Source of the DNA: Minisyncoccota bacterium | GTDB lineage: Bacteria; Patescibacteriota; Minisyncoccia; Phycocordibacterales; SBAW01 | DNA length: 64,000 nt | NCBI GenBank assembly: GCA_018060985.1 | Contig: JAGOUZ010000001.1 | Span: 85,057 to 149,056, forward strand | Direction: 5' to 3' | Shown here: positions 44,794 to 51,651 of the stretch, one piece after another | Layout: each line of letters starts with the position of its first letter | Position numbering within the stretch: the stretch's first letter is position 1 | Program-made: the position numbers and the translations under genes | Notes under the pieces: generated by a model | What the model saw: only the letters and a program-made list of their open reading frames with translations | The model's database searches: none | Told to the model about the DNA's origin: nothing

Positions 44794-47700
44794 TTACTGC
44801 GCTGCTTCGGACTTCTCTACTACCGGTAGCTCTACCGGGCGCGGAGTGTGTTTAGCAATCAGGTCTGCCTTAGGCGATCCCTTAAAGCCGGTACCAGCTG
44901 GGATCAGGCGGCCAATGATCACGTTCTCCTTAAGACCCTCGAGGCGGTCGATAGCGCCACCGATAGAAGCCTTAATGAGCATGCGGGTCGTGTTTTGGAA
45001 CGACGCTGCCGAGAGGAAGCTTGCGCGCGAGAGCGAGACATCGAGAATACCCATGACGAGCCCGTCTCCCTTTGCTGCATCGCCACCTGCTTCTTGAACG
45101 TTCTGGTTAATGAGAGAGAGCTCATTATTGGCAACCACATCGCCAACTGAACACTCTGTTCCGCCCGAGCTCGTGATCTTAACGCGGCTGAACATCTGGC
45201 GAACGATTACTTCAAGGTGCTTGATCGAGATGTTGGCGCCCTGGAGCTCGTAGATTTTAACAATTTCAGAGATGATGTAGTCGAGTGTCTTTTCTTTGCC
45301 ACCGTATTTGAAGAGCTCCTGGAGATCGGCTGAGCCATCGGTCAGGAACTGACCCTTCACTACCTTGTCGCCGATCTTAACGAGCGGCACGCGGCGGAAG
45401 TGGACGGTGTACTCGATAGTGTCTTTGCCCTTCTTACCTGCCTTTAGGTGCTCAACGTCTGGAGCAATCGTGATGATCTTTTCTTTACCGTCGTCTTTCA
45501 TGTCGATAACTTCGCCACCAACCGTCGAGAGTACTGCCGGGTTGCGTGGTGCGCGGCGCTCAAAGATTTCCTCAACGCGAGGGAGACCCTGCGTAATGTC
45601 GCCGCCAACCGATGCGGCGCCTCCTGCGTGGAAGGTACGCATAGTGAGCTGGGTACCCGGCTCGCCGATAGCCTGTGCAGCAACGGTGCCGACAGCTTCG
45701 CCGAGAGCAACCGGCTTCATGGTGCCGAGGTCTGCGCCGTAACACTTGGCACAGAGACCCTTAAACGACTTACATGCGACTGGAGAGCGAACATATACAG
45801 AAGCGAGACCGAGTTCTTCAATGCGTCGTGCGTCTGCATGCGTAATGAAGTGGCCTTTCTTGTATTCTGTCTTGCCGTTTACCTCAATGTCTGAGGCCAA
45901 GAAGCGTCCGCCAATATTCTGTGCAAGGAATGTGCCGATACCTGATGCTGACTCGCGTGTAATCGTAAGACCTTCTTTCGTACTACAGTCATCTTCTGAA
46001 ATAACAACGTCCTGCGCAACATCGAAGAGACGACGTGTGAGGTACCCTGCTTTTGCGGTGTTGAGTGCGGTGTCAGAGAGACCTTTACGTGAGCCGTGGG
46101 TCGTAATGAAGTACTCGATCGGAGAGAGACCCTCTTTCATCGACTTCGTAATTGGGAACTCGATTGCCTCGCCTGTTGGAGACGCGATGAGACCTTTCAT
46201 ACCGGCCATCTGGGTAACCTGGGCTACTGAACCGCGGGCGCCAGATTTAAGCATGTCTGAAACTGGGCCGTTAAGCGTCAAGGTACCTGGCATCAGTTTT
46301 TCAACATCTGACTTAGCACCGTGCCAGATCTCGATGTTCATGCGGTAGCGTTCCTCTTCTGAAAGGAGACCTTCCTGCCAGTGCTTCATGATTTCGTCTG
46401 ACTTCAGCTGTGCAGCGGCAACAATGCCATCTTTTTCTTTCGGAATGCGGATGTCGTCGAGCGACCAGGTAATACCTGACTGAGTTACGTAGCGGAAGCC
46501 AAAGGTCTTAATGCGGTCCAAGATTTCCGGAACCTTTTCGAGACCGTAGCGGGTAATAAGGTCATCTACGAGTTTCGAGAGGCTCTTTTTGTCGATTGCG
46601 TGGTTTACGTATGGGTAGTCACTTGGGAACACTGTGTTAAAGAGAAGGCGGCCAACGGTGGTCTCAAAGAGCTGACCTCCGTACTGCGCGTACTTATCTT
46701 TTTCTGACGGCATGACTTTAATTTTTGCCTGGAAGCCCACCACGCCGTGGTCGTATGCAAGAATTGCGGCGTTTGGTGAGTGGAATGCCCTGCCCTCGCC
46801 CTTCATACCTTCAACCTCTTTGGTCATCCAGTATGAGCCGAGCAAGATGTCGAGGAGCTTGGTAGCAACTACCGGCTCTCCCGAACCAGGCTTCAAGATG
46901 TTGCGGTGTGCAGCCATGATCTCGCGTGCTTCGGTCTGAGCTTCTTGTGAAAGCGGCACGTGTACGGCCATCTGGTCGCCGTCGAAGTCTGCGTTAAATG
47001 CTGGACATACGAGCGGGTGGAGCTGGATAGCGTTGCCTTCAATAAGAACCGGCTGGAAGGCCTGGATACCAAGGCGGTGGAGCGTAGGTGCGCGGTTGAG
47101 GAGCACATATTTGTCTTTGATGATCTCTTCGAGGATTGCCCACACTTCCGGTACACCTTCGTCGATAAGACGGCCGGCGCCACGGATGTTATAGGCAAGT
47201 TCTTTTTCAAGCAGTTTGCCGATCACGAATGGGCGGAAGAGTTCGAGTGCCATATGTTTTGGCAGACCGCATTGGTTGAGTTTAAGTTCAGGACCAACGA
47301 CGATAACCGAGCGGCCCGAGTAGTCGACACGCTTACCAAGGAGGTTCTGGCGGAAGAGACCGTGCTTGCCCTTAAGGTTGTCAGAAAGCGACTTGAGCGG
47401 ACGGGTGCGAGCTTGGGTTGTTGCAGAGTATGCAGCACCACCGTGGCGGATTGAGTTGTCGATGAGGGCATCAACAGCCTCCTGCAAGATGCGCTTCTCG
47501 TTGCGGAGAATAACGTCCGGTGCAGCGATTTCAATAAGTTTCTTGAGGCGGTTGTTGCGGTTGATGACGCGGCGGTAGAGGTCGTTAACGTCTGACGTTG
47601 CATGGCGACCGCCATCAAGAGCAACCATAGGACGAAGTCCTGGCGGAATAACCGGAATGCGCGTGAGGAACATCCACTCTGGGCGAACATTTGCGCGCAC

Positions 47701-50700: not shown

Positions 50701-51651
50701 GCCGAGGTGGTCGATGTTGTCCTCAACGGCATCCGGGTCATTCTCTAGGTTAATAACCTGGCGGAGTACCGTTACAACATCGTCGAGAGAAAGCGTCTTG
50801 CGTCCAAGCTCTTTTTCATCACGAGATTTGTTAAAACGCTGGTTAAAGCGGTAGCGGCCAACACGAGAAAGGTCGTAGCGCTCTTCGCTAAAGATAGAGT
50901 CTATATATTCGCGAGCGTTCGCACTGGTAGCTAGGTCGCCATCGCGGAGGCGCTTGTGGATTTCGATGTACGCTTCTTCTACCGTCTTAGCAGTATCTTT
51001 TTCGATAGCGCCTTCTACCCACTGCTTTTCCTCTGGAGAGTTCGAGAAGAGCGACTTCAAATCGCTGTCGTATTGTGCGCCAAGCACGCGGAGGAGCGAG
51101 ATGGCTGGGAACTTGCGCTTACGATCAATGCGTACGGAGATTTCATTCTCTGCAGCGGCTTCGATCTCAATCCATGCGCCGCGGGCTGGGATGATCTTTG
51201 CGCCAAAGTGACGCTTGCCCTTAACCTCCTCAGCAGTAAAGAAGACACCGTATGAGCGGGCGAGCTGCGGCACAATAACGCGCTCAACACCGTTGATAAC
51301 AAAGGTGCCGTGCGAAGTCATAATAGGAAAATCGGCAAGGAAGATTTCCTGCTCTTTCTCTGAGTTGTTTACCTTGTTCTTAAGGCGGACAATGGCACGC
51401 AGCGGGATATCAAGCGTCAGCTTTTGCGCTTTTGCGTAGTGTTCGTCGTATTTCGGCTCCCCCATCTCGATCTTTACGAATTCGAGGTCAAACTTCTTGC
51501 CCGAGTAGTCCTTAATAGGAGTGAATTCCTTAAAGGTCTCCTTAACACCTTGTTCAAGGATCCACTTATAGGAGTCGAGCTGTGCCTGTCCCAAGTTTGG
51601 GGTGGCTACACGTGGCTCACGATACCTGCCGAAAAACTTTTGCTGACGCAT
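44794..51651 (-). CDS. rpoBC: Fused DNA-directed RNA polymerase beta-beta' subunit (RpoB-RpoC single polypeptide, 2285 aa)
   Basis: N-terminal RpoB blocks (...[17 protein letters not shown]..., ...[13 protein letters not shown]...). The frame continues without a stop through the linker ...[48 protein letters not shown] into the RpoC zinc finger [31 protein letters not shown] and the C-terminal trigger-loop regions. Confidence 0.9.

Follow-up and report, generated by a model that had tools for sequence, protein, structure and literature searches.

Are rpoB and rpoC, which encode RNA polymerase's two largest subunits (β and β′), a single gene in the Minisyncoccota bacterium studied here, and, if so, how did they come to be joined? 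The question is raised by a 64,000-nucleotide stretch of contig JAGOUZ010000001.1 (hereafter the window), in which positions 44794–51651 of the minus strand hold one open reading frame (ORF) only. This ORF, rpoBC, runs uninterrupted for 2285 codons from an ATG start to a TAA stop at 44794–44796 and encodes a 2285-residue fused β–β′ protein; the window contains 0 ambiguous bases, and an open frame of 2285 codons has a chance probability of approximately 2e-48. An initial annotation of this DNA had described rpoB and rpoC as one gene of 2285 codons without stating the strand, and the ORF bears this out. We conclude with high confidence that this is a genuine, selectively maintained rpoB–rpoC fusion in a Patescibacterium of the Parcubacteria/Paceibacterota type, encoding a single-chain β–β′ tether.

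Both halves of the predicted protein are complete. The β module (RpoB; residues 1–1047; 48511–51651, minus strand) comprises the Pfam Rpb2 domains 1, 2, 3, 45, 6 and 7, and this full set of six families lies in order at residues 19–1047, each scoring above its Pfam gathering score (for Rpb2_6, 419 bits versus 23.4). The β′ module (RpoC; residues 1066–2285; 44797–48456, minus strand) carries Rpb1_1 to Rpb1_5, complete, in order and all above the Pfam cut-off, at residues 1066–2163, together with an N-terminal zinc ribbon (residues 1120–1139; 48235–48294, minus strand) and the catalytic Mg-binding motif NADFDGD (residues 1553–1559; 46975–46995, minus strand). The GEMEVWAL motif of β and both zinc-binding motifs and NADFDGD of β′ are intact in the fused ORF. 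By domain and motif content the N-terminal half is an RpoB and the C-terminal half an RpoC, and a single frame without a stop leads from the β C-terminal motif, which starts at residue 1041 (48531), to the β′ N-terminal motif, which starts at residue 1066 (48456), as in natural rpoB–rpoC fusions. The junction, initially placed near 48.2 kb, actually lies at approximately 48.5 kb (48457–48510), the former position being that of the zinc ribbon. Chains of solved structures in the PDB match the two halves separately, β chains at residues 9–1071 and β′ chains at residues 1217–2257; among the best 60 such matches there is no fused chain, the longest having 1434 residues.

The same fusion is found in many relatives. 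We considered the best 120 matches of a whole-protein homolog search, which come from NCBI, JGI, ENA and Logan assemblies, with identities between 93% and 51%. Proteins of 2200–2350 residues make up 110 of the 120, and all homologs that reach the junction cross it in frame, with linker lengths that differ by whole codons only. Clustering at 90% identity yields approximately 87 distinct full-length fused homologs, at 75–93% identity and from independent assemblies, with the same in-frame junction. No stand-alone β′ at ≥75% identity occurs among the best 120 matches, though its score would have cleared the lower bound of the list. For the closest homolog, P0001 (93% identity), two separate JGI samples each supplied a contig (722 kb and 28.6 kb), on which its neighbours are as in the window; the size of the longer contig is in keeping with a reduced genome. 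Relatives have inherited and kept the fusion, which is not confined to one assembly.

The linker itself evolves like coding sequence. Its 18 residues (1048–1065; 48457–48510, minus strand) consist of a shortened β tail (RGGER), the former β′ start position (V1053, codon GTG) and the former β′ N-terminal tail; the initial description of it as Arg/Ala-rich is roughly right, with three arginines and three alanines. The block RKTPGAD (residues 1057–1063; 48463–48483, minus strand) corresponds to a consensus, RKTPGAE, that is nearly invariant in the fused clade (70–82 of 87 sequences at each position), and the equivalent segment is variable in split relatives. V1053 aligns with the ancestral β′ Met; at this position (–13) 61 of 87 clade members have V, I, L or M, a pattern that is no more than suggestive. 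The window junction contains no homopolymer. In a codon alignment with the closest relative, L161, the genes share 84% nucleotide identity and differ by 746 synonymous and 162 non-synonymous codon changes, with no internal indels and with the last two codons absent from the L161 gene; the 18 linker codons account for 5 synonymous and 1 non-synonymous differences and 0 indels. Because the changes in the linker are dominated by synonymous ones, without an indel, we interpret it as translated and under purifying selection.

We next consider how rare such fusions are. A direct test for a stop codon between the β C-terminus and the β′ N-terminus was applied to 160 loci from species-representative genomes and metagenomes, a broad bacterial sample among the matches listed for peptide patterns universal in bacteria, which serves as a control rather than as a set of close relatives. 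Three of these loci are fused, namely Helicobacter muridarum L073, which the test called correctly as a positive control, and L005 and L085, both Parcubacteria; the other 157 are split. This count and the literature agree with the initial statement that fusions are known from Helicobacter and Wolbachia and are otherwise rare. An apparent same-frame arrangement of rpoB and rpoC in all 160 loci was rejected as biology, being a ranking artefact in which a single tblastn high-scoring segment pair reads through the stop; in loci fetched by exact protein look-up, rpoB and rpoC lie in different frames. A β′ search against 50%-identity representatives returned 5 proteins of more than 2200 residues with β′ in the C-terminal half among the best 150, a lower bound since length-based counting fails at contig ends. 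Protein length as a proxy for the fused or split state was likewise rejected, as the 1230-residue 'stand-alone' P0294 is fused in DNA, and direct stop-codon tests were used where DNA was available.

The scatter of the trait goes beyond the two textbook lineages. Further natural fusions comprise P0117 (2668 residues), P0118 and P0119 (approximately 2620 residues), P0120 (3132 residues), P0134, P0237, P0242 and P0243. All have the domain order of the window protein in one polypeptide but are longer and distant in the β′ tree, and one or more belong to a genome that is large and not reduced. The 3132-residue rpoBC of P0120 (L164) adjoins sulfatase genes in a 3.5-Mb genome of an unrelated, non-reduced lineage, and its cluster has 24 members with genomes of 3.5–4.8 Mb.

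Among relatives, the named homologs carry the labels Candidatus Paceibacterota, Patescibacteria group, Parcubacteria group, Candidatus Zambryskibacteria, Candidatus Ryanbacteria and Minisyncoccia; Zambryskiibacteriota belong to the Parcubacteria group of Patescibacteria in the NCBI taxonomy. We built neighbour-joining trees of concatenated β and β′ (approximately 2200 columns, 300 bootstraps). The window falls in a core clade of 19 sequences, all fused (bootstrap 100%), and the fusion is fixed in this clade. The wider clade (100%) is mixed: besides the core clade it holds fused P0088 with split L001 (Zambryskiibacteriota, 100%), fused P0089 with the split pair L002 and L087 (91%), and the split L082 and L083 (100%). 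A second clade of 18 sequences, which includes the Ryanbacteria protein, L005 and L085, is all fused (100%) and is joined to the wider clade by weak support (51–63%). The fusion is therefore a useful lineage marker, as initially suggested, for the immediate clade (19 of 19 fused, 100% bootstrap) and not at higher rank in the Parcubacteria, where it is homoplastic, with fused and split states interleaved and at least four events. The initial annotation had also named a stop codon with a ribosome-binding site at the junction in close relatives as evidence against a fusion; such junctions occur only in the more distant L001–L003, L082–L083, L166 and L167 and never in the window's clade.

Some database labels conflict with these trees. 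P0114, labelled 'Anaplasmataceae bacterium', nests in the Patescibacteria fused clade with 100% bootstrap; the label is probably wrong, and the likeness of a fused rpoBC to that of Wolbachia is possibly behind it. L003 and L006 carry the label Saccharibacteria and L007 that of Gammaproteobacteria, and all three group with Parcubacteria, their taxonomic labels being probably mistaken.

The junctions differ in architecture between these lineages. We measured the span in codons between the same two anchor motifs, which is 68–75 (mode 70) in the fused core clade, 68 in fused P0088 and 80 in its split sister L001, 89 in fused P0089 and 90 in its split sister L002, and 61 (mode) in the second fused clade. 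Fused junctions are 10–12 codons shorter than those of their split sisters. Linker sequences are unrelated between the core clade, P0088, P0089 and the second-clade groups. The sequence PGAE, shared by P0088 and the window's clade, was considered as a sign of a common fusion event and rejected, since it is the ancestral β′ N-terminus and is found in split relatives that start MNNNYKNPGVE.

One lineage indicates how the state may change. A search with the β′ part of P0088 returned at least 120 'stand-alone' Zambryskibacteria proteins at 80–92% identity. The closest among the matches listed, P0294 (L165, positions 1–4332, GCA_038058745.1), is annotated as a stand-alone β′ of 1230 residues and is actually fused in DNA: the L165 contig begins inside rpoB and so truncates the gene, whose frame stays open across the rpoB 3′ end and on into rpoC, the annotated β′ having been mis-started at a retained internal Met. 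The P0088-type fusion is thus present in two independent assemblies (P0088 and P0294). In split relatives rpoB and rpoC lie in different frames, with a gap of 11 nucleotides in P0295 (L166), a gap of 5 nucleotides in P0299 and an overlap of 8 nucleotides in P0307 (L167). At the P0088/P0294 junction, ...ELKKK(K) is joined straight to the retained β′ ATG across a poly-A tract (GAAAAAAAAGATGA) of up to 8 A directly before ATGA (L163, approximately position 4430; L165, approximately position 630). A slip of ±1 in this tract would end β at the TGA of ATGA, giving a classic overlap, and the L163/L165 junction is possibly phase-variable. The window linker is a junction of the P0088/P0294 type in its logic, but older.

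These data suggest a route to fusion. Where rpoB and rpoC are packed tightly, with gaps of 5–11 nucleotides or an 8-nucleotide overlap, a small deletion or slip would remove the β stop and the spacer and join the frames; in this lineage the fusion would have arisen because the two genes are packed almost end to end. Gene context adds a further line of evidence: the order rpsP–KH–trmD–rpoB–rpoC–dnaG–rpoD is common to fused and split members of the wider clade (L001–L003, L082, L083, L087, L161, L163, L166 and L167), and the second fused clade does not have this order, its upstream genes being of the SEDS type and MltG/YceG-like. Together, the trees, the junction architecture and the gene context indicate that fusion happened separately at least four times among Parcubacteria, at least three of these events being additional to that of the window's clade. 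We tentatively propose, as an idea that we hold at slightly less than an even chance, that fusion is recurrent and labile in Parcubacteria, driven by extreme junction compaction and toggled in at least one lineage by poly-A slippage next to ATGA, and that RKTPGAE, the former β′ N-terminus, was recruited in the window's clade as a nearly invariant linker element that has its own function, such as a clamp/RNA-exit contact or a processing site; no paper in the literature searched was found to report any of this.

Alternatively, a single ancient fusion in the Parcubacteria ancestor could have been split several times later, the split relatives being revertants. Reversion would be mechanistically easy, given that a single slippage event separates the states in one sub-lineage; the tree places the two large fused clades as sisters, with support of only 51–63%, and four gains compare closely with one gain followed by three or four losses. 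Three junction architectures, with spans of approximately 70, 89 and 61 codons and unrelated linker sequences, argue against a single origin, as does the different gene context of the second fused clade. Moreover, the β tails of split lineages are mutually homologous (L001 ...VLNQGRQ*, L082 ...IKNQGHNE*), pointing to a split ancestor; because of this homology across split lineages we regard the split state as ancestral. P0088 and P0294, finally, keep the β′ Met and lie within a large set of split Zambryskibacteria at 86–91% identity. We therefore consider a single ancient fusion unlikely, and retain recurrent fusion as the preferred account.

The window fusion also stands apart from those described previously. 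Natural rpoB–rpoC fusions occur in Helicobacter and Wolinella (Zakharova et al. 1999, as cited in PMC7483510 and PMC1557499). As in the Helicobacteraceae, the window has complete β and β′ head-to-tail in one ORF with a short linker, and the rpoB and rpoC genes of relatives overlap or closely abut. The two differ in lineage (Campylobacterota versus Patescibacteria) and in linker sequence, which is unrelated, and the window protein has 2285 residues versus approximately 2900 in Helicobacter according to the literature, being smaller because both of its modules are without lineage-specific insertions. The literature treats the Helicobacteraceae fusion as a single stable rare change, whereas the relatives of the window have several recurrences. 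A fusion is also known from Wolbachia (Lane and Darst 2010, as cited in PMC7483510); it too is a natural β–β′ fusion in a reduced-genome, host-dependent bacterium, but of an unrelated lineage. The β′ tree puts the window with Parcubacteria, at a long distance from Helicobacter L073, and the linker is unrelated, which does not fit common descent with the Helicobacteraceae and Wolbachia fusions; judged by these sequence comparisons, the window fusion originated independently of both. A full-text literature search, to which most subscription journals are closed, found no report of an rpoB–rpoC fusion in Patescibacteria or the candidate phyla radiation, which is absence of evidence only.

Engineered enzymes indicate that such a tether can be functional. 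An engineered Mycobacterium bovis RNA polymerase with β and β′ fused via a 10-residue linker is active (PMC3993855), and similar engineered fusions are described, in a paper citing Severinov et al. 1997, as supporting growth of Escherichia coli with unchanged transcription properties. The window protein shares with these the connection of the β C-terminus to the β′ N-terminus by a linker of 10–20 residues, a design compatible with assembly and normal transcription, but the engineered tethers are artificial and the natural linker contains the conserved RKTPGAE from the former β′ N-terminus. A natural β–β′ fusion is a known kind of oddity and not a new mechanism; its recurrence and the slippage-prone junction are more interesting than the fusion itself.

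We propose that one mRNA would give one 2285-residue polypeptide, in which a tether of approximately 18 residues would link the β C-terminus to the β′ N-terminus, neighbouring ends in the bacterial RNA polymerase clamp. The fused chain would fold with α2 into an ordinary core enzyme, and this core would bind the sigma factor encoded approximately 2 kb downstream of rpoBC. The tether would ensure 1:1 synthesis, proximity and co-assembly of the two largest subunits; production and assembly of β and β′ at 1:1 through the covalent link are likely, and the tether may help assembly in a minimal cell. According to the literature, omega normally aids β′ folding and core assembly. From the engineered and Helicobacter precedents we infer that the active enzyme contains the fused polypeptide at full length; it would presumably stay uncleaved and be the sole source of β′, and any fitness benefit is presumed in the same way.

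Several points weigh against a genuine single-chain enzyme. The basis throughout is DNA and predicted proteins; the trees are neighbour-joining only, with some deep nodes weak (51–63%); and an AlphaFold2 model of a 333-residue junction fragment, from a 9-sequence alignment, reached a mean pLDDT of 39.6 and a predicted template modelling (pTM) score of 0.27, too low for use, so that the tether geometry rests on the literature. Post-translational cleavage may take place at the conserved RKTPGAE block, and an internal start in the linker, which contains two in-frame GTG codons (V1053 and V1064), may yield free β′ as well.

If these last two possibilities held in full, the fused ORF would be a unit of transcription and translation only, and cleavage at RKTPGAE or an internal β′ start would leave separate subunits in the working enzyme. 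RKTPGAE is indeed more conserved than a passive tether requires, while the same segment varies freely in split relatives; the β′ ATG is kept in the P0088/P0294 fusion, and the position aligned with that Met is the –13 site with its V, I, L or M preference. Yet the nearest relative has GTC at V1053, and inspection of the linker sequence showed no Shine–Dalgarno sequence before V1053 or V1064, which argues against an internal start. A Pfam search of the fused protein returned no protease site and no intein-like element, the literature describes engineered and Helicobacter fusions as working uncleaved, and the clade is uniformly fused although a stop codon would be easily regained if needed. We regard separate subunits as improbable and favour an uncleaved β–β′ chain.

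The locus of a distant relative, L085, has a 1-nucleotide frameshift at approximately position 8845, in the rpoC portion of an rpoBC that is otherwise fused (...ALKTAQAG*, then another frame). The contig is a metagenome one of low coverage, and the frameshift, probably an assembly error or the mark of a pseudogene, exemplifies how a real error looks. The initial annotation had asked for an artefact to be ruled out, and that rpoB and rpoC are truly separate and were merged in assembly by a lost stop or compensating indels, as happens in metagenome contigs and as the L085 frameshift and the homopolymer junctions of relatives might suggest, is practically excluded by the identical in-frame junction of approximately 87 independent clusters from four data sources, the two samples behind P0001, the synonymous-dominated, indel-free divergence of a homopolymer-free linker and the lack of a split relative at ≥75% identity among the best 120 matches.

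With these findings the single-chain β–β′ curiosity known from Helicobacter and Wolbachia extends to the Patescibacteria. Instead of being a rare genomic change that happened once, the trait arises again wherever rpoB and rpoC lie end to end in tight packing, which calls for caution if it is to serve as a deep phylogenetic marker; within the window's clade the marker is valid, at higher rank it is unreliable. Annotators and marker-gene pipelines that expect separate rpoB and rpoC will mislabel fused genes, and all named fused homologs are annotated only as 'beta' or only as 'beta-prime'. Such mislabelling can distort completeness estimates, marker trees and taxonomy, one homolog having been labelled Anaplasmataceae. 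The very compact, natural single-chain catalytic core of 2285 residues is possibly a convenient object for recombinant expression and structural study of transcription in Patescibacteria, which is otherwise inaccessible as these organisms are largely uncultured.

In the window, rpoBC lies in the order rpsP, KhpA-type KH protein gene, trmD, rpoBC, dnaG and rpoD (41538–53451, minus strand). This is not the canonical rplKAJL–rpoBC context, as rplJ and rplL are not directly upstream of rpoB; the rplKAJL locus has been termed 'universally conserved' (PMC12993453). The spacer between trmD and rpoBC (51652–51927) measures approximately 275 nucleotides and contains a sigma-70-like promoter candidate, TTGACG-16-TATACT (51884–51911, minus strand), approximately 230 nucleotides upstream of the rpoBC ATG. 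The candidate is a consensus match only, at 10 of 12 positions, and the count of such promoter-like sites in the region is not above that in shuffles. It would give a leader of approximately 230 nucleotides, in which there is no Rfam match and no obvious Shine–Dalgarno sequence before the rpoBC ATG; Rfam and tRNA scans of the entire window found nothing.

Downstream, a GC-rich hairpin of 13 bp (44740–44773, no strand assigned) with A-rich and T-rich flanks lies 20 nucleotides after the rpoBC stop; its outer stem is conserved in L161 and its interior is different. The gap of 387 nucleotides between rpoBC and dnaG (44407–44793) contains a small convergent ORF (44478–44717, plus strand) of 79 residues from TTG, or 70 residues from an ATG at 44505, which is preceded by a strong Shine–Dalgarno sequence, GGAGGG, and encodes a hydrophobic C-terminal segment. 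A gene of 78 residues is called at the equivalent site in L161, its sequence being poorly conserved. The hairpin is likely a bidirectional terminator for rpoBC and the convergent ORF. Because of this convergent ORF in the gap, rpoBC and dnaG–rpoD are probably separate transcripts. The KhpA-type KH protein (52635–53006, minus strand) ends in a low-complexity tail with a run of ten serines (GGSSSSSSSSSSAPESS).

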